64,000 nt of DNA from a virus. Location: IMG/VR virus record IMGVR_UViG_3300045988_087130, positions 25,785-89,784 of that record. One strand, written 5' to 3'. A program made the translations under genes and the position numbers. This document shows positions 4,239-62,360 of this stretch, in pieces; position 1 is the first letter of the stretch; each line of letters opens with the position of its first letter. The notes below the pieces were generated by a model that was not told the origin of the DNA, did not search any database, and saw nothing but the letters and a program-made list of their open reading frames with translations.

Positions 4239-5055
4239 TGTTAATTGTTTCAGAAGAGTTCTGTTAGATGTCGGTGGCAAGAAGACAATAATCAGTGTTC
4301 CGCATGAAATGTCCGAAACCGAAGTAAATAAGGTTATGGTTGTTACCAGAGCCTATCTACAGCAGTATGTCTATGTCGAAATGATATTGGCAGAGTGTTT
4401 CATTCAGAAAATCGAAAAGAGTATTCTGAAGAAGAAATGCGTTAGGTTTGAAGTTAAGAAGAAGTGGGTGGACTGCAAGAAGAACCTTCGCAAGGTGGTT
4501 AAGTATTATGACGCTTATGTTCCTAATGCAGATTTCAATAACGAATTCGCAATGACGTTTTATGACAAGATTAGTGGAGACTTGTATAAGTTGCGAGATA
4601 AGATTGCGGTGAGGTTACAGAACTTAGGAATTGGTGAAAAATCGGGAGTCTATGCGAATGCAATCATCCTTTATAATCTCACCAACCTTTGTCTGGGAAC
4701 TTATGAGAATATCATCCGTAAGCTGTTTGAAGAATTGCACGTTAACTTAATGCAAGCGTTCAAGGATTTTGCCCCAATACTTGCTTTTGAGAACTCCTAT
4801 GACTTCATGGCGTTAGTGATGGATAAGGATTTCGAGAGACTGGCAGACCATTTGATGACCAAAGAAATTCTTTCTTATTTCGACAAGGTGAGAAAAGGTG
4901 TCTTTGACGAACAGACATTGAATAAGGCTGCTATCAATGCAACGGAAGACTTGAAAGACGATGAGAAGGATTTGCAGCGGACTTATATAGGAATTAATGA
5001 TTTTATGAAGAGTGACTTTCCTTTGGAGAGAACAACATCAAAGAAAGCAAGCTGA
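4231..5055 (+). CDS. hypothetical protein
   Basis: Track ORF 4207-5055 starts at TTG; first ATG at 4231 overlaps upstream stop by 8 nt. Confidence 0.45.
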   Translation: MSSVNCFRRVLLDVGGKKTIISVPHEMSETEVNKVMVVTRAYLQQYVYVEMILAECFIQKIEKSILKKKCVRFEVKKKWVDCKKNLRKVVKYYDAYVPNADFNNEFAMTFYDKISGDLYKLRDKIAVRLQNLGIGEKSGVYANAIILYNLTNLCLGTYENIIRKLFEELHVNLMQAFKDFAPILAFENSYDFMALVMDKDFERLADHLMTKEILSYFDKVRKGVFDEQTLNKAAINATEDLKDDEKDLQRTYIGINDFMKSDFPLERTTSKKAS

Positions 5056-5312
5056 TGAGAATAGAACCTAGTGAGTTCTTGCCGATAGGTAACGAATTTC
5101 AGAAAATCTTCGGTGTAAGCTTTGGAAAGTTTATAGATATGCGGTTTCTTTTGGCAAGAAAAGAACTGGTCTTCAACTTGCTTAAGTTCACGGATTGGCT
5201 TGAAGTGCGTTATCCGGATGAGTGTTTCATTGATGGAGTGAGTTACAATGCAGTTGTCGAGCGAAAGTTTGGCAAGCGAGGGGTTAAACTGATAAAAAAG
5301 TTATTAGGATGA
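5055..5312 (+). CDS. hypothetical protein
   Basis: 85-aa ORF. Confidence 0.4.
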   Translation: MRIEPSEFLPIGNEFQKIFGVSFGKFIDMRFLLARKELVFNLLKFTDWLEVRYPDECFIDGVSYNAVVERKFGKRGVKLIKKLLG

Positions 5313-6034
5313 AATATATGGGCAGCAAAGCGAGAATCGTGCATGAGATATTGCCGATTATGCAGGACAAGGAACATGATACGTTTGTAGATGCTTTCTG
5401 TGGTGGCTGTAGTGTTATTGAGAACGTTCCGGACACGTATCGCAGGATTGCCAACGATAAGAATAAGTATCTTATCGAAATGTGGAAGCATCTTCAGAAT
5501 GGAGGATTTGTCTTCAGTCATATTAGCAAGGAGACGTATGACAAGGCACGAGATTGCTATCACGGAAAGAATAATTTCTTTACGGAAGCTGGTGTAGGAC
5601 TAGTCGGCTTCATGGCAAGCTTTAATGGTCGCTTCTTTGATGGTGGCTATAGCGGACATAATGTTGTCGGCAAGAACGGAAAGGCAAGAGATTACATAAG
5701 GGAGCAGATTGAAAACACTATGCGTGATGTGCCTCTCATTAAAGGTGTTGAGTTCTATAGCGGCAGTTATGATGAACTTGTGATACCGGAGAGGAGTATA
5801 GTGTATTGCGATATACCTTACAAAGCTACGAAAAAGTACGATGTATCAAAGAACTTCGATTATGAAAGTTTCTATATTTGGTGCATGGAAATGGCTAGAA
5901 GAGGTCATAAGGTCTTTATCAGCGAGTACCAGATGCCACAAGAGTTCAGATGTGTTTGGGAAAAGGAAGTAACAAACTCTCTTAACCCGAATATCACAAA
6001 GAGACCAGTCGAAAGGTTGTTTACTATTGATTAG
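5309..6034 (+). CDS. Dam-like (D12-class) DNA N6-adenine methyltransferase
   Basis: N-terminal MKYMGSKARI and FCGGCSV (SAM motif I), downstream catalytic DIPY (DPPY-type) in the alpha-class order. Confidence 0.75.
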   Translation: MKYMGSKARIVHEILPIMQDKEHDTFVDAFCGGCSVIENVPDTYRRIANDKNKYLIEMWKHLQNGGFVFSHISKETYDKARDCYHGKNNFFTEAGVGLVGFMASFNGRFFDGGYSGHNVVGKNGKARDYIREQIENTMRDVPLIKGVEFYSGSYDELVIPERSIVYCDIPYKATKKYDVSKNFDYESFYIWCMEMARRGHKVFISEYQMPQEFRCVWEKEVTNSLNPNITKRPVERLFTID

Positions 6035-6043
6035 AAAGAAGAA

Positions 6044-6202
6044 ATGAAAGAAACTTATTGCTTGGAGGATACGCTTTACAATACAAAGCGTTACTTCACT
6101 ATAGAGAATGGAGTGGTATCAGGAACAGAACTTGCACAGGAAGACTTTAACGTATTTCTTGATCTTGCAAGTCGGCTTGGCTATAAGGTAGTGAAATTAT
6201 GA
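6044..6202 (+). CDS. hypothetical small protein
   Basis: 52-aa ORF found by hand, not in track (<60 aa). Confidence 0.25.
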   Translation: MKETYCLEDTLYNTKRYFTIENGVVSGTELAQEDFNVFLDLASRLGYKVVKL

Positions 6203-6360
6203 CAAGGCGAGTAAACAAGGATTGTCCGTTCACGGCAGAAGAATTGGATGAGTTAAGAGCTGCCTTGTATAATGTGAATACATCTTTTCACTGCTGTAAT
6301 GCAACTCCGGTAGATTGGGCGGCAGGATGGCAGCGGAACGATATAAGAAAGATAAGGTAG
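6199..6360 (+). CDS. hypothetical small Cys-containing protein
   Basis: 53-aa ORF found by hand; ATGA overlap with preceding small ORF. Confidence 0.25.
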   Translation: MTRRVNKDCPFTAEELDELRAALYNVNTSFHCCNATPVDWAAGWQRNDIRKIR

Positions 6361-6810
6361 GAAAGCCATAATCTACCAAATACCCACGTCTCAAAGCCGT
6401 GCGATGTCCAGCGTGGGGGCGGGATTGTAAACTTAGGAGTCGCACGGCTTTATTTGGAAGTTTCCATAACTACAAATAGCCTATCGCTAATGGTTGTTCC
6501 CTTGGGCAAGGAGATAGTTAATACCGCATCGTAAGATGTGAACACTTAAAATTTGCCGACAACCATTGGCAAAAGCCCATCAGTCAGCGACAGAACCCCT
6601 TGGGCAAGGTGGGAATGGTGCACAGTCTTCAAATTCGCATCTGTCGCTGACAAACGGATGAGTGGCATTGGCAACTGAAAGCAATGCGACCCTCGCAAAC
6701 TTGGAGCGGATTTTCTGATTAAACATTCCGTGTACTGAGTCACTGGGGAGGATTTGGCACCAACAAGGGTTTAAATCCCTTGTCATCCACTAATTTTAAA
6801 AGGTTAAATT
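6361..6810. other. ORF-free GC-rich structured element (candidate structured ncRNA or replication origin)
   Basis: No convincing ORF on either strand; perfect inverted repeats AAAGCCGTGCGA/TCGCACGGCTTT and GTCAGCGACAG/CTGTCGCTGAC; direct repeat CCCTTGGGCAAGG x2; GC content above flanks. Confidence 0.3.
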
Positions 6811-7038
6811 ATGAATGAGTATTGTGAGAATTTGATTTCAAATGGAGTTCCTAGCTGGATAGTAGAGGAGGCTTATAAATTTACAATTGAGCCTTTGAAA
6901 TCAACAGAAGGCTTGGTAGGAATTGATAAGGAAAATAGTGAGCTATATAGAAATGTCATTATCGCAGCCTATATTGAGGGTGCTAGTGCTACATTGGTAA
7001 AAGTGCAAAAATATTATGGCGGTGAGGAACATAGTTAG
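6811..7038 (+). CDS. hypothetical protein
   Basis: 75-aa ORF. Confidence 0.4.
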   Translation: MNEYCENLISNGVPSWIVEEAYKFTIEPLKSTEGLVGIDKENSELYRNVIIAAYIEGASATLVKVQKYYGGEEHS

Positions 7039-8553: not shown

Positions 8554-8782
8554 GTACATTGAAAGTCTTATCAAGAAAGTGTTTCGTAATGCAGATTCGC
8601 AGAGCGAAATACTTTCCAGATTGGATAGGGTTGAGATTTCAAGCCATCAAGCTTCAGTAATGATACATGCGTTGAAGCTAGAGTGCAACATCGGTCGTTC
8701 CGTTCTGGCATATATGTTAATGGCGAACAATCTAAATCCAAAAATGGATGAGTTCTTTAGTATATTAGGTTACGATGAATGA
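8477..8782 (+). CDS. hypothetical protein (start uncertain, possibly ATG 8534)
   Basis: 101-aa ORF overlapping upstream gene. Confidence 0.35.
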   Translation: MPRSMVLRLWLSLLSTIKAMTDRQRKYIESLIKKVFRNADSQSEILSRLDRVEISSHQASVMIHALKLECNIGRSVLAYMLMANNLNPKMDEFFSILGYDE

Positions 8783-11060: not shown

Positions 11061-12041
11061 ATGACAGGATTCAAAAGTGAAAATGTCGAATTGGAGGCTT
11101 TGCCAGTAGCCTCATCAGTTTTAAACAACTTCAAAGAAGGAGGTGTTAGAGTTGTAGAAATTATTGAGCATGATGGCAAGCAAGCCGTGAACGCAAGGGA
11201 ACTACACCAAAAGTTGGGAAACAAGAGGCAATTTGCCGATTGGATTAAGCAGCGAATTGAGCAGTATGGATTTGTTGAAAATCAAGACTATGAGGTTTTT
11301 CACAAAATTGTGAAAAACTCAAATGATGTTGAAAATCAAGACTTTTCTTCATCTGATAATTTTGCCAAACGAGAAAAGGGAGGCCGAAGTCGTGTAGAGT
11401 ATGCTCTTTCGCTAGACATGGCTAAGGAGCTGTGCATGGTTGAGAACAACGAGAAAGGCAGGATGATTCGCAAGTACTTCATTGAAGTTGAGAAGAAGGC
11501 TAGAACACAAAATCCATTTACTATTCCTCAGACTTATTCTGAAGCCTTGCTTCTTGCTGCAAACCAAGCAAAGCAAATCGAAAAGCAGCAATTGGCATTG
11601 GAGCAGAAGAAAATTGAGAATGACAAGCTGGTTGCAGATGGTAAGCGCAAGGACGCAACCATAGTACGTATGAAGCCTAAAGAGGTATTCACGGATGCGG
11701 TTGCAGGTAGCAAGGGCAATTGCCTAGTTGGTGAGGTTGCGAAGTTGATAACTCAAAATGGCTACAAGATTGGCGAAAAGCAATTTTTTGCTTGGTTGCG
11801 GGATAATGGCTACCTTGGAAAGAAAGGAGAGCGTTACAATATTCCTAACCAGCAGTATATGGGTAAGAATCCTTTCTTTTATATCAAGAGAGGTGTGCGT
11901 CAGGGTGATAATGGAGTGTTGCACACGACAAGTACAACAATGCTGACACCAAAGGGACAGATTTATTTTGTAAACAAGTTCCTTGGAAAAGGAGGTTTAC
12001 AAGGTGATTTGTTTGCGAATGGTGAGGCACACGATAAATAA
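11061..12041 (+). CDS. phage antirepressor (AntA-like N-terminus, KilAC C-terminal domain)
   Basis: AVNARELHQKLGNKRQFADWIKQRIEQYGFVENQDYEV fits the AntA/AntB pattern; C-terminal GSKGNCLVGEVAKLITQNGYKIGEKQFFAWLRDNGYL fits KilAC/ANT. Confidence 0.7.
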   Translation: MTGFKSENVELEALPVASSVLNNFKEGGVRVVEIIEHDGKQAVNARELHQKLGNKRQFADWIKQRIEQYGFVENQDYEVFHKIVKNSNDVENQDFSSSDNFAKREKGGRSRVEYALSLDMAKELCMVENNEKGRMIRKYFIEVEKKARTQNPFTIPQTYSEALLLAANQAKQIEKQQLALEQKKIENDKLVADGKRKDATIVRMKPKEVFTDAVAGSKGNCLVGEVAKLITQNGYKIGEKQFFAWLRDNGYLGKKGERYNIPNQQYMGKNPFFYIKRGVRQGDNGVLHTTSTTMLTPKGQIYFVNKFLGKGGLQGDLFANGEAHDK

Positions 12042-25778: not shown

Positions 25779-25805
25779 GGTGAGGCACACCCGAACAACT
25801 GCACA
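25779..25805 (+). promoter_or_regulatory. GGTGAGGCACACC..AACAACTGCAC element
   Basis: Exact motif 10 nt after the 25768 stop. Confidence 0.4.
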
Positions 25806-29382: not shown

Positions 29383-29791
29383 CGATTTCAACGCTGCCGA
29401 TGAATTTGTCGTTGAGGCAATGATGCAAGATGGCAAATTCAAGGTTATCGGCAAGGTTATTATTGATAATAATCTTCTGAATGATGATGATTTGGAAACT
29501 ATCTGGGATTATGCCAACTGGGAGACGAACGGCTATGAAAAGATGGTTGTCTCTAACGGAGTGTACAAAGGCTTGAAAGCATTTAGCGATGGGCGTTTGT
29601 TCTATGTAATTACTGATGATGAGGTTGGAGTGGTAAATGACAATATCATGGTACGTAAGCATTATGATGTCAACAATGGCTATTATATTAAGTCATCAAG
29701 GTTGCACAAGGAACAATCCAGGGACTTATGGTGCTTTGGTAGCCGTGAGACTATTGAGAACGAATATAGGTCAAATAAAAAACTGTTTTAA
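29363..29791 (+). CDS. hypothetical protein
   Basis: 142-aa ORF. Confidence 0.4.
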   Translation: MRPIEISDFNAADEFVVEAMMQDGKFKVIGKVIIDNNLLNDDDLETIWDYANWETNGYEKMVVSNGVYKGLKAFSDGRLFYVITDDEVGVVNDNIMVRKHYDVNNGYYIKSSRLHKEQSRDLWCFGSRETIENEYRSNKKLF

Positions 29792-31026
29792 ATTGAGTAG
29801 TATGATTTCATACAAGTACAAGTTATACCGGACGAAGAAGACGAGGCATTTGGATAAGATGCTCCGAGAGGCTTGCTATGTTTGGAATCATGCGCTTGCC
29901 TTGCAGAAGAGATACTATAAGTTGTATCACAAGTATATTCCTAGATTTATGATGCATCATCATTTTGCTAAACGATATAAGCCAATTTTGCTTAACAGCC
30001 ATACCGTTAGGGAAATCTTGGATAGATTAGATGTAGCTTACAAGCGTTTCTTTAAGCATGATGCAAAGCGTCCACCTAAGTTCAAAAAGATGGTTGAATT
30101 TAGTTCGTTCGTTTTCAAAGATAATGGTTATTCCCTTAGTGGAAACGAGTTTGTGATAAACAAGATAAAGAAGTCCTTCAAGTTCTCTCTGAGCCGTCCT
30201 TACGATGGCAAGGTTAAGAGGGTATCAGTCAAGCGCAACAAGCTGGGCGAGTACTTCATTATCCTTTGCTTGGACAAGCAAGCCGAGCCTTACGGAAAGT
30301 CACACGATGGTGCATCCGTGGGCATCGACTTTGGATTGAAGAAGTACATGACTTTGAGCGATGGTCGTGAGATTGATAATCCTCAGTTCCTTAAAGCTGA
30401 CTTGCAGGAGCTTAGGCGCAGGTCTCGCAACCTCTCGAAGTGCAAGAAGGGCAGCAACAACCGCAAGCGCAAGAAGATGGAATTGGAGCGATTGTATCGG
30501 GATATTGTGAACAAACGTTCCGATTTCCAGTGGAAGCTGGCTCACGAACTTTGCAAGCGTTACGACTTGATTTGCTTGGAGGACTTGAACTTGGAGGTAA
30601 TGGCAAAGCGTTGGGGACGCAAGATGTCTGACTTGGCACATAGCGATTTCGTTGTGAAGTTGGAGCACGTAGCGAAGAAGTATGGCGTTAAGGTTCATAA
30701 GATAGACCGCTTCTTCCCATCGAGCCGCCTTTGCACTTGTGGTTATAAGAACGATAAGCTGTCATTGGGTGATAGGATTTGGACTTGCCCTAGTTGTGGT
30801 GCTGTTCATCCTAGAGACCTCTTCGCAGCTGAGAATATACTTCGGCAGGGCATTGCCGAATTGGGGAGTGGTAGTAAGTCACCCAAGCACTCGCAAGGGC
30901 GCAGCCACGTTAACAACCCAACAATCCCTTGTAAATAGCAATGGAGTGTGCCATGTATGCAATAGACTTAGCTCAACGCAAGCAACTTGAAGGATAAAAA
31001 CAAAATACAAAATTAAGAATAAGCAT
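29780..31026 (+). mobile_element. putative IS1341-like element (TnpB only); ends not defined
   Basis: Single tnpB with an 88-bp 3' flank before the next gene; compositional island. Confidence 0.4.
29802..30938 (+). CDS. tnpB: IS200/IS605-family TnpB (OrfB, IS1341-type), no TnpA partner
   Basis: N-terminal YKYKLYRTKKTRHLDKMLREACYVWNHALAL (OrfB_IS605 N-terminus) and C-terminal zinc ribbon CTCGYKNDKLSLGDRIWTCPSCGAVHPRD; GC-richer than its surroundings. Confidence 0.8.
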   Translation: MISYKYKLYRTKKTRHLDKMLREACYVWNHALALQKRYYKLYHKYIPRFMMHHHFAKRYKPILLNSHTVREILDRLDVAYKRFFKHDAKRPPKFKKMVEFSSFVFKDNGYSLSGNEFVINKIKKSFKFSLSRPYDGKVKRVSVKRNKLGEYFIILCLDKQAEPYGKSHDGASVGIDFGLKKYMTLSDGREIDNPQFLKADLQELRRRSRNLSKCKKGSNNRKRKKMELERLYRDIVNKRSDFQWKLAHELCKRYDLICLEDLNLEVMAKRWGRKMSDLAHSDFVVKLEHVAKKYGVKVHKIDRFFPSSRLCTCGYKNDKLSLGDRIWTCPSCGAVHPRDLFAAENILRQGIAELGSGSKSPKHSQGRSHVNNPTIPCK

Positions 31027-34888: not shown

Positions 34889-34961
34889 GCTGCATTAGAC
34901 AAGTGGTTAAGTCGCCAGTTTTTCACGCTGGTATTCAAAGGTTCGAATCCTTTATGCAGTA
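34889..34961 (+). tRNA. tRNA-Glu (anticodon TTC)
   Basis: Hand-folded: acceptor GCTGCAT/ATGCAGT, anticodon stem CCAGT/GCTGG with loop TTTTCAC, T-arm AAAGG-TTCGAAT-CCTTT. Confidence 0.6.
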
Positions 34962-34967
34962 CAAATT

Positions 34968-35038
34968 TGCCCTATGGTGTAATGGCAACACTACAGGTTT
35001 TGGTTCTGTCATTAGTGGTTCGAATCCGCTTGGGGCAA
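34968..35038 (+). tRNA. tRNA-Gln (anticodon TTG)
   Basis: Acceptor TGCCCTA/TGGGGCA, anticodon stem ACAGG/TCTGT with loop TTTTGGT, T-loop TTCGAAT. Confidence 0.55.
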
Positions 35039-35069
35039 CAAGGTGATATTTGATATGTATTCCACAAAT

Positions 35070-35154
35070 GGTGCAATATTCAAGCGGCTAAAGAAGACTG
35101 ACTGTAAATCAGTTCCCATTGCGGGTTCGGTGAGTTCGAATCTCTCTTGCACCA
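35070..35154 (+). tRNA. tRNA-Tyr (anticodon GTA), type II with long variable arm
   Basis: Acceptor GGTGCAA/TTGCACC; D-loop AGCGGCTAAA; anticodon loop CTGTAAA; variable arm CCC-ATTGC-GGG; T-loop TTCGAAT; 85 nt. Confidence 0.65.
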
Positions 35155-35178
35155 CAAGAGTAACTTTGTCAGATTACG

Positions 35179-35250
35179 GGGAATGTAGCTCAGAAGTAGA
35201 GCACTTGGTTCGTAACCAAGGGGGCATTGGTGCAACTCCAATCATTCCTT
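35179..35250 (+). tRNA. tRNA-Thr (anticodon CGT)
   Basis: Acceptor GGGAATG/CATTCCT, D-arm GCTC-AGAAGTA-GAGC, anticodon stem CTTGG/CCAAG with loop TTCGTAA; unusual T-loop TGCAACT. Confidence 0.5.
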
Positions 35251-35253
35251 TAC

Positions 35254-35325
35254 GCTTTCGTAGCTCAGTGGCAGAGCATAGGATTTTTAATCCTAGGGTC
35301 GAAGGTTCGAATCCTTCCGTTGGCA
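35254..35325 (+). tRNA. tRNA-Lys (anticodon TTT)
   Basis: D-arm TAGCTCAGTGGCAGAGC, anticodon stem TAGGA/TCCTA with loop TTTTTAA, T-arm GAAGG-TTCGAAT-CCTTC; acceptor stem has two internal mismatches, so ends are uncertain. Confidence 0.5.
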
Positions 35326-35498
35326 CAATGATACACAAGAAGAGAGCCGTGATGTTTGTTCTGTTGGAATCTCGGACATCTGTCAACGGATAACGTAGGA
35401 AGCAGATGGGGCGAATAAAGTTGTGAATAAGCTTATGAACTAGGGAAGCAAGCGGAATGGCCTCTTTTTTGTGCTTCATTTGATGGTTTAACGAAAAA

Positions 35499-60239: not shown

Positions 60240-61442
60240 ATGAATGAGTTTACAAAGGTCTTTGCAAAGACAATAGAAGATGAAGCTATCAAGCAGATAG
60301 AAGTTCTATCCAATAGCGATGCTTACTCTGGTTGTGAAATAAGAATAATGCCAGATTGTCACGCAGGTAAAGGCTGTACTATTGGCACGGTGATAGAGCT
60401 GGACAAAAGAGTAGTTCCTAACACCGTAGGAGTAGATATAGGTTGCGGAATGAAAGTCGTTAGACTTGGTAAAGTTAATATTAATCTACAGAAATTTGAC
60501 GAAGCAGTCAATACGTTGATTCCGTCTGGTTTTAATATCAACGAAGAAGCTTCTGCATACATACATGGATTAGTTGACGGCAATATGTTTGGTAAATTTC
60601 GTTCTTGGGATAGTATTAATGGGATGGATATAGTATATCGTTCTGTTGGTTCTCTTGGCGGTGGCAATCACTTTATTGAGTTAGATGCAAATGAAGAAGG
60701 AGAGAAGTTTCTTGTGATACATACAGGAAGTAGAAACCTTGGTGTTAGGGTATGCAACTATTACCAAAAACTTGCCTACGAGTATTGTCGTAAGAAAATA
60801 GCAGATAAGTCTGAGGTTATTGCCAAGTTGAAAAGCGAAGGAAGAGAAAAGGAAATACAGAGTGCTATAAAGTTGTTAGGTACTAGAGATATTAGCAAGG
60901 AACTTTCTTACTTGGAGGGCGATTTGCTTGATGATTACTTAAATGATATGCGTATAGTTCAGAAGTATGCCGAGCATAATAGAAGAATTATAGCTAACAG
61001 ACTCGTCAATGCTCTAGGTGTGGATATTGACCCAAATTCAGACAAGCATTCTTTTACAACTATTCACAACTATATAGATACAGACAAGGGCATATTGCGA
61101 AAAGGAGCTATCAGTGCAAAGAAAGACGAGATTGTCATTATTCCTATGAATATGCGTGACGGTTCTCTTATCTGTAAAGGTAAAGGAAACAAGGAATGGT
61201 TATGCTCAGCCCCACATGGCGCAGGTAGATTAATGTCTCGTACACAGGCAAAGAAAGAGTTATCTATGGATTCTTACAAGAATGAAATGAATGGTATCTA
61301 TTCCACATCAGTTTGTGAAGAAACCATTGATGAAGCACCTATGGCATACAAACCAACCGAAGAGATTGTTGAGCTAATAAAACCTACGGTTGATGTGATA
61401 GATGTTATTAAACCAATTTACAACTTTAAAGCAAAATTATAA
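60240..61442 (+). CDS. rtcB: RtcB-family RNA ligase (short form)
   Basis: RtcB hallmarks MPDCHAGKG, VGVDIGCGM, GGGNHFIEL, HNYID, SAPHGAGR all present. Confidence 0.75.
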   Translation: MNEFTKVFAKTIEDEAIKQIEVLSNSDAYSGCEIRIMPDCHAGKGCTIGTVIELDKRVVPNTVGVDIGCGMKVVRLGKVNINLQKFDEAVNTLIPSGFNINEEASAYIHGLVDGNMFGKFRSWDSINGMDIVYRSVGSLGGGNHFIELDANEEGEKFLVIHTGSRNLGVRVCNYYQKLAYEYCRKKIADKSEVIAKLKSEGREKEIQSAIKLLGTRDISKELSYLEGDLLDDYLNDMRIVQKYAEHNRRIIANRLVNALGVDIDPNSDKHSFTTIHNYIDTDKGILRKGAISAKKDEIVIIPMNMRDGSLICKGKGNKEWLCSAPHGAGRLMSRTQAKKELSMDSYKNEMNGIYSTSVCEETIDEAPMAYKPTEEIVELIKPTVDVIDVIKPIYNFKAKL

Positions 61443-61645
61443 TGAGCAAGGAAACATTTGACTTCTCGGAGGCTCTGAGAAGAATGAAGGAAGGGAAGAA
61501 AGTGAGAAGGGTAATTTGGGAAGAATGTGGAGCTTATATCCATATTGTCTCTGAGACTATTGTGGCTGTATGCGATGGGCAATTCTTTCCTTGTGTTTTC
61601 AAAGATTCTGAGGATATACTTGCAACAGACTGGGAGGAGGTGTAA
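61442..61645 (+). CDS. hypothetical protein
   Basis: 67-aa ORF. Confidence 0.35.
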   Translation: MSKETFDFSEALRRMKEGKKVRRVIWEECGAYIHIVSETIVAVCDGQFFPCVFKDSEDILATDWEEV

Positions 61646-61647
61646 GG

Positions 61648-61713
61648 ATGAAAAAGAAAGTATTGACCCTCACCGTCAGCAAGCAGTGGTTCGACATGAT
61701 AGTAGTATTATGA
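61648..61713 (+). pseudogene. 21-codon 5' fragment duplicating the start of ASCH-like gene 62362
   Basis: MKKKVLTLTVSKQWFDMIVVL* against MKKILTLTVNKEWFSRILLGEK... at 62362; the HNH gene lies between them. Confidence 0.4.
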
Positions 61714-62360
61714 TAAAAGGAACAGAAGTAAATATCATACAAGGTGAAATTTGGAAGCCCATAAAAGGTTACGAAGGTTTATATTTTATTAGTAATCTTA
61801 GCAGGGTGAAAAGGATTACACCCAGAGGTAAGTTTAAGGAACGTTTATTGTACAAGAGACAAAATGATGCAGGTTATTGGTGCGTGTCACTTTGTAAGAA
61901 CGGAAAAGCAAAATGTAAGCGTGTACATAGATTGGTTGCTGAAGCGTTTATTCCTAATCCCGAGAATAAAACACAAGTTGGGCATAAAGACGAGACTCGG
62001 ACTAATGATTCTATCGAAAACTTAGAATGGGTAACTCCGAAAGAAAATTGCAATATGCCGTTACATAAACTGCGTATTGCTAACTCACAAACTGGGAAAA
62101 AGGATAGTTTGGAAACTAAACTAAAGAAACGCAATGCACAATTGGGAGAAAAAAGTCATTTATACGGCAAGAGGGGTAAAGATAATAGGTTTTCTAAACC
62201 CATATTGCAATACAATAAAAATGGCGAACTAATGAAGGAATACGAAAATGCTGAAGAAGCGTATAGAATTACGGGAATAGCAAGTTCGCATATCAGAGAA
62301 TGTTGCAACGGTTTAAGAAAAACCTCTGGTGGATATTGTTGGAAATTTAAAAATAAATAA
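61710..62360 (+). CDS. HNH homing endonuclease (NUMOD4 + HNH_3)
   Basis: IKGYEGLYFISNLSRVKRI (NUMOD4) and VGHKDETRTNDSIENLEWVTPKEN (HNH_3); the long track ORF 61527 begins upstream, but ATG 61710 follows the fragment stop. Confidence 0.65.
   Translation: MIKGTEVNIIQGEIWKPIKGYEGLYFISNLSRVKRITPRGKFKERLLYKRQNDAGYWCVSLCKNGKAKCKRVHRLVAEAFIPNPENKTQVGHKDETRTNDSIENLEWVTPKENCNMPLHKLRIANSQTGKKDSLETKLKKRNAQLGEKSHLYGKRGKDNRFSKPILQYNKNGELMKEYENAEEAYRITGIASSHIRECCNGLRKTSGGYCWKFKNK

Follow-up and report, generated by a model that had tools for sequence, protein, structure and literature searches.

The window analysed here is a stretch of 64,000 nucleotides (nt) of viral DNA (IMG/VR virus record IMGVR_UViG_3300045988_087130, positions 25,785 to 89,784), and this work concerns an element at positions 6361-6810 of it. 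Upstream of the element, at 5309-6360, lie a gene for a D12-class N6-adenine methyltransferase (PF02086) and two open reading frames (ORFs) of 52 (6044-6202) and 53 amino acids (aa), and downstream of it a 21-nt A/T-rich spacer precedes a 75-aa ORF that starts at ATG 6811. An earlier note, made from the sequence alone, had given this gene context correctly (a Dam-like gene, two tiny ORFs and an AT-rich spacer before ATG 6811) and had offered three options for the element: a structured non-coding RNA (ncRNA), a ribozyme or a replication origin. The first of these gained support and the other two did not, and the main feature of the locus, a tRNA-like domain (TLD) at the 3′ end, had been missed. 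We hold with moderate confidence that 6383-6789, with a constant core at 6466-6789, is a conserved plus-strand ncRNA gene whose 3′ 134 nt have the shape of a tRNA without an anticodon.

The absence of a credible ORF claimed for 6361-6810 was borne out, since stops break all six frames across 6340-6830; the longest mechanical ORFs at the element have 65-71 aa and lie on the minus strand. Stop-codon recoding restored no ORF in any of the six frames over the same interval, and recoding of a single stop cannot rescue one, as at least two different stop codons occur in each frame. The element is also richer in G+C than its surroundings, as had been reported: 200-nt windows between 6200 and 6799 have values of 0.45-0.49, and the flanks 0.35-0.41. 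Of the repeats described earlier, the perfect 12-nt inverted repeat lies at 6393-6404/6440-6451; a second one (6583-6594/6640-6651) is likewise perfect but has 12 nt and not 11, and the direct repeat CCCTTGGGCAAGG does occur twice, at 6499 and 6597 (98 nt apart, start to start), with a gap of 85 nt instead of 86. Another string, CATTGGCAA, is repeated at 6564 and 6666, and the 12-mer CCTTGGGCAAGG has no other exact occurrence in the 64 kb. The plus strand folds better than shuffled sequences do (z = -3.47), the minus strand less markedly so (z = -2.15). A scan for sigma-70 promoters and terminators, whose scope does not extend to Bacteroidota promoters, returned nothing at the element.

Motif scans found the element in 73 IMG/VR contigs (11-134 kb) and 27 metagenome contigs, nearly all of human-gut origin; with few exceptions they share 90-99% identity with the window. 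The sole GenBank phage record that carries it is MT835610 (L001; human faeces; 93% identity), in which homology begins at about 6379, the methyltransferase gene and the two small ORFs (5309-6378) are missing, and the RNA stands directly after the homologue of the ORF at 5055-5312. Three divergent lineages, named here after their contigs L029, L020/L026 and L079/L111, were usable for tests of the stems. Two scans of 185,579 bacterial species (one genome each) gave no true match and no host, prophage or integrated copy; further motif scans and a protein-anchored scan for new lineages returned the same clade only, and the metagenome scan yielded human-gut contigs of the known clade, one extra L079 copy and three chance matches, with nothing else new. 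Phages of Cellulophaga, Riemerella and Porphyromonas have the major capsid proteins nearest to that of this phage, whose host is therefore likely to be one of the gut Bacteroidota. Among 57 distinct relatives, mean pairwise identity reaches 0.94-0.98 across 6491-6790 and is highest, at 0.984, in 6641-6690; no other 50 nt of the 1.5 kb compared are as conserved, and the TLD starts there. The downstream ORFs (0.84-0.97) are no better conserved than the element, and the upstream region (0.75-0.79) is much less so.

The 3′ part of the element folds as follows:

6656-6789, plus strand: tRNA-like domain, a 134-nt cloverleaf with its acceptor ends free.
6656-6660 (GGAUG) / 6784-6788 (CAUCC), plus strand: acceptor stem of 5 bp, with covariation.
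6665-6687, plus strand: D arm, with a 6-bp stem (6665-6670/6682-6687) that carries compensatory changes and an 11-nt loop, GCAACUGAAAG.
6691-6751, plus strand: long arm of 61 nt, standing where a tRNA has its anticodon arm; the stems covary and the internal loops are nearly invariant.
6691-6694/6748-6751, 6699-6704/6735-6740 and 6707-6709/6728-6730, plus strand: stems of the long arm.
6763-6783, plus strand: T arm, whose 7-bp stem (6763-6769/6777-6783) ends in UUUAAAU, a loop of 7 nt.
6789-6793, plus strand: discriminator A6789, then CUAA; UCC-A-C is invariant.

A covariance model (R1) was built from 19 sequences with the proposed structure and used to realign 100 family members, 30 of them distinct, into alignment A5. 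Within the TLD of this alignment 99.1% of the cells are in standard pairs, and two-sided changes occur in 12 of the 31 pairs, compared with 2.0 +/- 1.0 in shuffles and 1-3 with slid partners. Over the analyses as a whole, the compensatory pairs of the domain number 12-13. The same cloverleaf was recovered de novo by RNAalifold from a MAFFT alignment that was not fitted to a structure, and the cloverleaf model also detects ordinary tRNAs, with scores of 15-30 bits, so the shape of the TLD is that of a tRNA.

In the acceptor stem, pairs 4 and 5 covary (U-A to G-C, and G-C to A-U or C-G), and G1-C72, G2-C71, A3-U70 and A73 are invariant in 30/30 distinct sequences, A3-U70 being present in L020 too. 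The acceptor strands read GGAUG/CAUCC in the window, where both lie inside the 134 nt, GGAGAU/AUCUCC in L029, GGAGAUU/AAUCUCC in L020 and GGAGCU/AGCUCC in L079; in L020 the acceptor, D and T arms are all preserved, though built from other sequences. The acceptor and T stems together amount to 11-12 bp in all four lineages, although the split differs (5+7 in the window, 6+6 in L029, 7+5 in L020, 6+5 in L079). Compensatory changes are found in four of the six pairs of the D stem and in 4/7 pairs of the T stem, including a change from C-G to G-C within the window's own family. The T loops are UUUAAAU in the window, UUCGAAU in L029, UUCGAUU in L020 and UUUGAAU in L079, those of L029 and L020 being canonical. 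A6678 of the D loop pairs with U6772, the third base of the T loop; the window clade and L079 have A-U here, L029 has G-C, as does L020 when read from its sequence, and the switch coincides with the change of U56 in the T loop to C56. On the tRNA model this pair is the 19-56 pair of the elbow.

The long arm behaves differently in its stems and loops. The stems vary with pairing retained (C-G to G-C at 6700/6739, and many switches between U-A and U.G or between G-C and G.U), whereas the internal loops GCAA/CACUGGG and AG/UGUA are nearly invariant across three lineages. The terminal loop, of 18 nt in the window (18-19 nt), is variable, and it is unrelated in L029 and L079, so that the domain has no anticodon. 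CCA is not encoded by the element: its trailer, CUAA or CAAA, resembles that of the phage's own CCA-less tRNA genes (34889-35326), three of the five of which continue with CAA. An RNase P site is predicted between 6655 and 6656, and a 3′ processing site directly after 6789.

Variants of the G.U or U.G type occur in every stem and would be A/C mismatches on the other strand, and thus the RNA is read from the plus strand, on which the flanking genes and most of the window's long ORFs are likewise encoded. This pattern of compensatory and wobble changes, with pairing kept only on the plus strand, shows that selection at the RNA level maintains the fold, and it upholds the structured ncRNA option of the earlier note.

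Upstream of the TLD, the RNA consists of these parts:

6383-6451, plus strand: optional 5′ module, a pseudoknotted hairpin made of stems S1 and S2.
6393-6404/6440-6451, plus strand: stem S2, the first 12-bp inverted repeat.
6383-6388 (CCCACG) with 6412-6417 (CGUGGG), plus strand: stem S1, whose second strand lies in the S2 loop.
6466-6485, plus strand: single-stranded leader CAUAACUACAAAUAGCCUAU, the start of the constant core and a boundary of homology.
6486-6570, plus strand: unit A, a long hairpin with a 13-bp closing stem (6486-6498/6558-6570).
6500-6511, plus strand: mini-hairpin CCUU-GGGC-AAGG of unit A.
6525-6530/6535-6540, plus strand: inner 6-bp hairpin of unit A, with a GUAA tetraloop.
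6583-6651, plus strand: unit B, a hairpin with a 12-bp closing stem (6583-6594/6640-6651), the second inverted repeat.
6598-6609, plus strand: second CCUU-GGGC-AAGG, in unit B.

In stem S2 the pair 6402/6442, C-G in the window, is U.G in 29 and U-A in 14 distinct relatives, and the whole stem is rewritten in L020/L029 (AAGGGAGGCGUG/CACGCCUCCCUU) and in L079. Stem S1 shows one compensatory change, from C-G to U-A in L020/L029, which supports the pseudoknot. The 5′ module is missing in 7 of about 101 relatives, and the constant core was therefore taken to start at about 6466, with the leader (in L029, CAUCAGUACCUAGCC). Homology begins at the leader in L065, L096, L099, L103 and L110, in which the upstream context is different, and further junctions, all of them 5′ of 6466, were seen in L096, L065, L099, L103, L110 and L102; because relatives differ in their junctions there, the region upstream of 6466 is a hot spot of recombination. 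Between the 5′ hairpin and the remainder of the RNA, L079 (minus strand, about 8700-8740) holds a remnant of 12 codons, MKETYFRDETYN*, with homology to the beginning of the 52-aa ORF.

Four positions of the closing stem of unit A vary in the family, nearly always to G.U or U.G; with respect to L029 there are two compensatory pairs, and the inner hairpin is rewritten (CGCAUC/GAUGUG against CAAGCA/UGCUUG). In unit B, 19 distinct relatives have A-U and 31 have G.U at 6590/6644, and L020/L029 have an analogous unit with a different stem, CUGGGUGUG/CACACAUUCAG. GGCAAG (6505-6510) and UUUGCC (6552-6557) can pair throughout the family but not in L029/L020, and we claim neither a pseudoknot nor an extension from them. 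The string UUGG(G)CAA occurs four times in 170 nt (6502-6509, 6566-6572, 6600-6607 and 6668-6674), that is, in both mini-hairpins, at the 3′ end of the unit A stem and in the D arm, which could reflect a contact with RNA or protein common to these sites, or chance. In a comparison of L020:1291-1474 with L029:5710-5847, the 5′ parts of the RNA are near-identical and the tRNA-like domains different, that of L020 being about 180 nt long, with a different, longer insert and CCACUGGGAUGGGAG retained; the two sequences read as a module exchange inside the RNA gene.

Searches of known families did not recover the RNA. Rfam 15 found only the five tRNAs at 34889-35326 in the whole window and no family at gathering score in 6361-6810; even at E <= 10 the element gave two chance-level matches only (DUF2815 RNA and L31 leader) and the 3′ domain alone gave none, so that GOLLD, ROOL, group I intron and retron RNA, the examples named earlier, receive no backing. 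Nothing meaningful was returned by Rfam for L020 and L029. ARAGORN, which detected the five real tRNAs at 34889-35326, called nothing at the element in the window and no gene in L020. Nothing points to a ribozyme either, the evidence on that option going neither way. No description of the RNA was found in the literature, and it may overlap with an unnamed candidate of a phage survey of 10,006 csRNAs (PMC10690425). This type of RNA is absent from every catalogue searched here.

With tRNA (RF00005) the TLD has in common the 12-bp stack of acceptor and T stems, a T loop of seven nt in which U54, U55 and A58 are present, the D arm, a tertiary pair of the 19-56 type, the discriminator A73 and a CCA-less 3′ end. 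It differs in having a 61-nt hairpin where tRNA has an anticodon arm (5-bp stem, 7-nt loop), in its non-canonical D loop, in the U56 of the window lineage and in forming the 3′-terminal part of a longer conserved RNA, and neither ARAGORN nor the Rfam tRNA model calls it. A 3′ tRNA-like structure on a longer structured RNA is also found in MALAT1-mascRNA, MEN-beta and the tRNA-like structures (TLS) with pseudoknot domain of plant RNA viruses, with which the TLD may further share the recruitment of RNase P, RNase Z and the CCA-adding enzyme; those, however, are eukaryotic nuclear long non-coding RNAs or RNA virus genomes, whereas the present RNA belongs to a DNA phage of Bacteroidota, and none has a sequence relation or a detailed structural one to the TLD. 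The RNA is best placed among the tRNA-mimic ncRNAs, with its function unproven.

A 12-bp stack, a T loop, G1-C72 and A73 are the features recognised by RNase P, RNase Z and the CCA-adding enzyme, and these structural requirements of the mascRNA type are all present in the TLD. Because of them, and of the precedent of YrlA from M. smegmatis, a tRNA-like ncRNA that is cut by RNase P and receives CCA in vivo (PMC4201824), we propose a path of tRNA-like maturation. The RNA would probably be excised from a polycistronic early transcript: host RNase P would cleave 5′ of G6656, the 3′ end would be trimmed back to A6789 by RNase Z or an exonuclease, and the CCA-adding enzyme would complete it. The product would be a stable tRNA mimic, either free or still joined to the two upstream hairpin units, and its invariant arm and acceptor end would engage a tRNA-binding factor of the host or the phage; a specific partner is argued for by the invariance of the acceptor end and of the arm loops. 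In the most speculative step, the RNA could serve as a decoy or scaffold in a phage-host conflict over tRNA. We favour such a role, speculatively, because the phage encodes RtcB (PF01139, E = 6.6e-64; 60240-61442), five tRNAs and several DNA methyltransferases. Phage RtcB is generally taken to repair tRNA cut by host RNases (PMC7824862). The RNA itself lies among methyltransferase genes and near an antirepressor gene (11061-12041).

Several observations weigh against this interpretation. Alignment A5, from which the pair statistics come, was fitted to the model. Of the four lineages in all, three consist of one or two contigs each, and no protein gene is a constant neighbour of the element: the 75-aa downstream protein recurs in L020 only and the 53-aa upstream protein in L079 only. 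RtcB lies 54 kb from the RNA, so that the link is thematic and not syntenic. The ends of the RNA, its processing and the addition of CCA are predictions, and an RNA that lures anticodon nucleases should display an anticodon loop, of which there is none here. Finally, a 1.28-kb TnpB element of the IS605 family stands in place of 6572-6738 in 17 of 80 related contigs, which were selected via the 53-aa protein encoded upstream, and the RNA is dispensable because the middle of it is lost in these phages.

The part replaced comprises unit B and most of the TLD; the junctions are always identical, and the event is a replacement, not a simple insertion. Such alleles were found at L173:1914-3197 and also in L179, L227, L239 and a subset of L288-L346. 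The replacing element encodes a 378-aa TnpB (OrfB_IS605 and a Cas12f1-like TNB) that is 89% identical to the TnpB of the window (29637-30938; IS605 OrfB family, 433-aa ORF), the L173 homologue starting at the internal Met 56 (MISYKYKL). The flank past the right end of the element, ACCAGGTCACTGGGGAGG, would be the guide region of the omega RNA.

Among other explanations, the main rival, which we think unlikely, holds that the TLD is a module for processing or stability only, similar to mascRNA, and that the two CCUU-GGGC-AAGG hairpins upstream of it belong to the effector proper, which might act as a sponge for an RNA-binding protein; cleavage by RNase P at 6655/6656 would then set the 3′ end of the upstream RNA, after the stable 12-bp hairpin of unit B. 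In favour of this rival, the near-identical 5′ parts of L020 and L029 are joined to different TLD inserts (a module swap), the 13-mer is identical in units A and B while the remainder of the units diverged, and UGGGCAA is retained in L079. On the other hand, no variation is seen across lineages in the loops of the long arm, in the D loop or in acceptor pairs 1-3, although the stems covary; this is a tighter constraint than RNase P recognition calls for, and the conservation peak (6641-6690) lies at the start of the TLD.

That the RNA is a partner of Ro60/Rsr resembling Y RNA, a circularly permuted YrlA whose long arm would bind Ro60 and whose TLD would work with enzymes of RNA repair or decay such as RtcB and PNPase, appears improbable to us. 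Like this RNA, YrlA and other bacterial Y RNAs are ncRNAs with tRNA-like D, T and acceptor elements that occur in phages; YrlA is genomically linked with RtcB in enterobacteria, standing in an operon with rtcBA in Salmonella (PMC4201824), and the present phage encodes RtcB. However, no Rfam family matches, the motif GNCGAAN0-1G, which Y RNAs carry close to the 5′ end in the stem that their termini form (PMC4201824), is absent (the closest string, in the long arm, reads CUCGCAAAC), and the topology is permuted, the RNA ending at the acceptor stem where YrlA ends at its putative Ro-binding stem; it is also longer and carries two extra hairpin units. Y RNA genes lie within about 4 kb of an rsr gene (Ro60/TROVE), on the same strand as it, but no rsr gene is near this element: the ORFs scanned within 4 kb of the element (some small ones left out) gave methyltransferase families or no match, with no TROVE among them, and the 64-kb window holds no ORF of the size of Ro60 (about 500 aa), only the 2042-aa tape measure protein being larger. 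The four longest ORFs of the window encode that protein, TnpB, a Band 7 protein and RtcB.

We give equally little credence to a cis-acting leader or processing signal for the gene at 6811, in which cleavage at the end of the TLD would create the 5′ end of its mRNA. The element does end 21 nt before ATG 6811 without a terminator of its own, and the junction to 6811 is kept across the family, TnpB-disrupted alleles included. Against this, the downstream gene is different in L079 (an unannotated ORF that starts MEEQNP), a spacer of about 150 nt precedes yet another gene in L020/L029, and 400 nt with a complete cloverleaf far exceed what that role needs.

Very doubtful, too, is an element acting as DNA, be it an origin, an operator, partition sites (the TTGG(G)CAA repeats or the palindrome CCTTGnnCAAGG) or an attP with the 3′ half of a tRNA. 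The palindrome CCTTG-GG-CAAGG is present twice and TTGG(G)CAA four times in 170 bp, and the gene just downstream of the RNA in L020 has a product that is ParB-like, by eye only. Yet the changes to G.U in the helices keep pairing solely in plus-strand RNA, the palindrome is not kept in L079, and both acceptor strands covary, so the sequence is not merely the 3′ half of a tRNA; nor did the 185,579 bacterial species genomes hold an integrated copy. The replication origin proposed earlier gains no support in particular because there are only two 13-bp repeats, where an iteron origin would have three or more, the element is G+C-rich and offers no A/T-rich unwinding region, and the cumulative GC skew is monotonic, with no turn.

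The reading as a divergent or permuted tmRNA that rescues ribosomes is close to refuted: the size (about 330-410 nt, as in standard and two-piece SsrA), the pseudoknot-like units beside an acceptor/T-arm module, faint T-arm matches of L020 and L029 to permuted tmRNA models of Rfam (11-13 bits, against gathering scores of 47-84) and an L079 acceptor (GGAGCUG/CAGCUCC-A) one base from that of E. coli tmRNA do recall it, but A3-U70 stands in 30/30 sequences in place of the G3.U70 that AlaRS requires, the acceptor strands lie within 134 nt instead of at the two ends of the molecule and do not enclose the body, the D stem is a real one, ARAGORN finds nothing, and the window, L029 and L079 have no short ORF or tag frame in common. 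Our first idea, a tmRNA whose acceptor 5′ strand was the string GGAUUGU of the hairpin 1 loop (in L020, GGAGAUU), was dropped, as this loop string is free to vary within the family (GGAUUGU, GGAUGGU, AUGAUGAU) and is missing in L079, and the local 5′ strand 6656-6660 covaries in all lineages.

Other RNA-related features were noticed in the window and in further contigs. The five tRNA genes of the phage encode Glu-UUC, Gln-UUG, Tyr-GUA, Thr-CGU and Lys-UUU (34889-35326; CCA in none of them), and at 60240-62360 the RtcB RNA ligase gene is followed by a gene resembling HNH/NUMOD homing endonucleases; RtcB and the tRNA cluster jointly suggest that RNA is repaired in the infected cell. Unrelated phage contigs carry genes of about 85 nt (L217:1296-1378, L215:1905-2009, L212:2332-2432, L183:5860-5942) that resemble the tRNA-like domain of tmRNA alone, with a GGGG... 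acceptor, a D analogue of the GGUUUUGACA type, a T arm and ...CUCCAC, the mRNA-like part being missing. A second group resembles tRNA-Leu (L207:603-743, L196:4734-4909, L240, L166:9414-9534, L177, L188:4899-5050 and L128), with a 5′ part GGAGAGAUGGCGGAAUUGGUAGACGC, a normal T arm and acceptor, and 60-100 nt replacing the anticodon and variable arms; ARAGORN does not call these genes in the phage contigs. They may represent a wider class of anticodon-less tRNA mimics, perhaps including the phenomenon seen in this phage RNA.

Much of the conflict between phages and bacteria is fought over tRNA: hosts attack with anticodon nucleases and with toxins that act on the acceptor end, phages respond with RNA ligases and tRNAs of their own, and the known tRNA mimics (tmRNA, Y RNAs and viral TLS) have each opened new biology. 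The claim made for the present RNA is limited, as the family is narrow (one abundant clade and three rare lineages) and its function unproven. Going beyond the tRNA-shaped ncRNA gene itself, we tentatively suggest an undescribed class of phage ncRNA, in which a conserved effector arm would take the place of the anticodon arm and two hairpin units would be fused to a domain processed by tRNA enzymes, the whole capturing or misleading some host factor that recognises tRNA by its acceptor end or elbow. It might be aimed at a nuclease or nucleotidyltransferase of tRNA-directed immunity, an aminoacyl-tRNA synthetase or an RNA-repair complex. The reading predicts defined cleavage sites, the addition of CCA and an invariant arm that could be used as bait for the partner, and the TnpB-disrupted alleles offer natural knock-outs for comparison. 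If true, a conserved anticodon-less tRNA mimic in abundant human-gut phages of Bacteroidota would be a new player in this conflict, and an experimentally tractable one.

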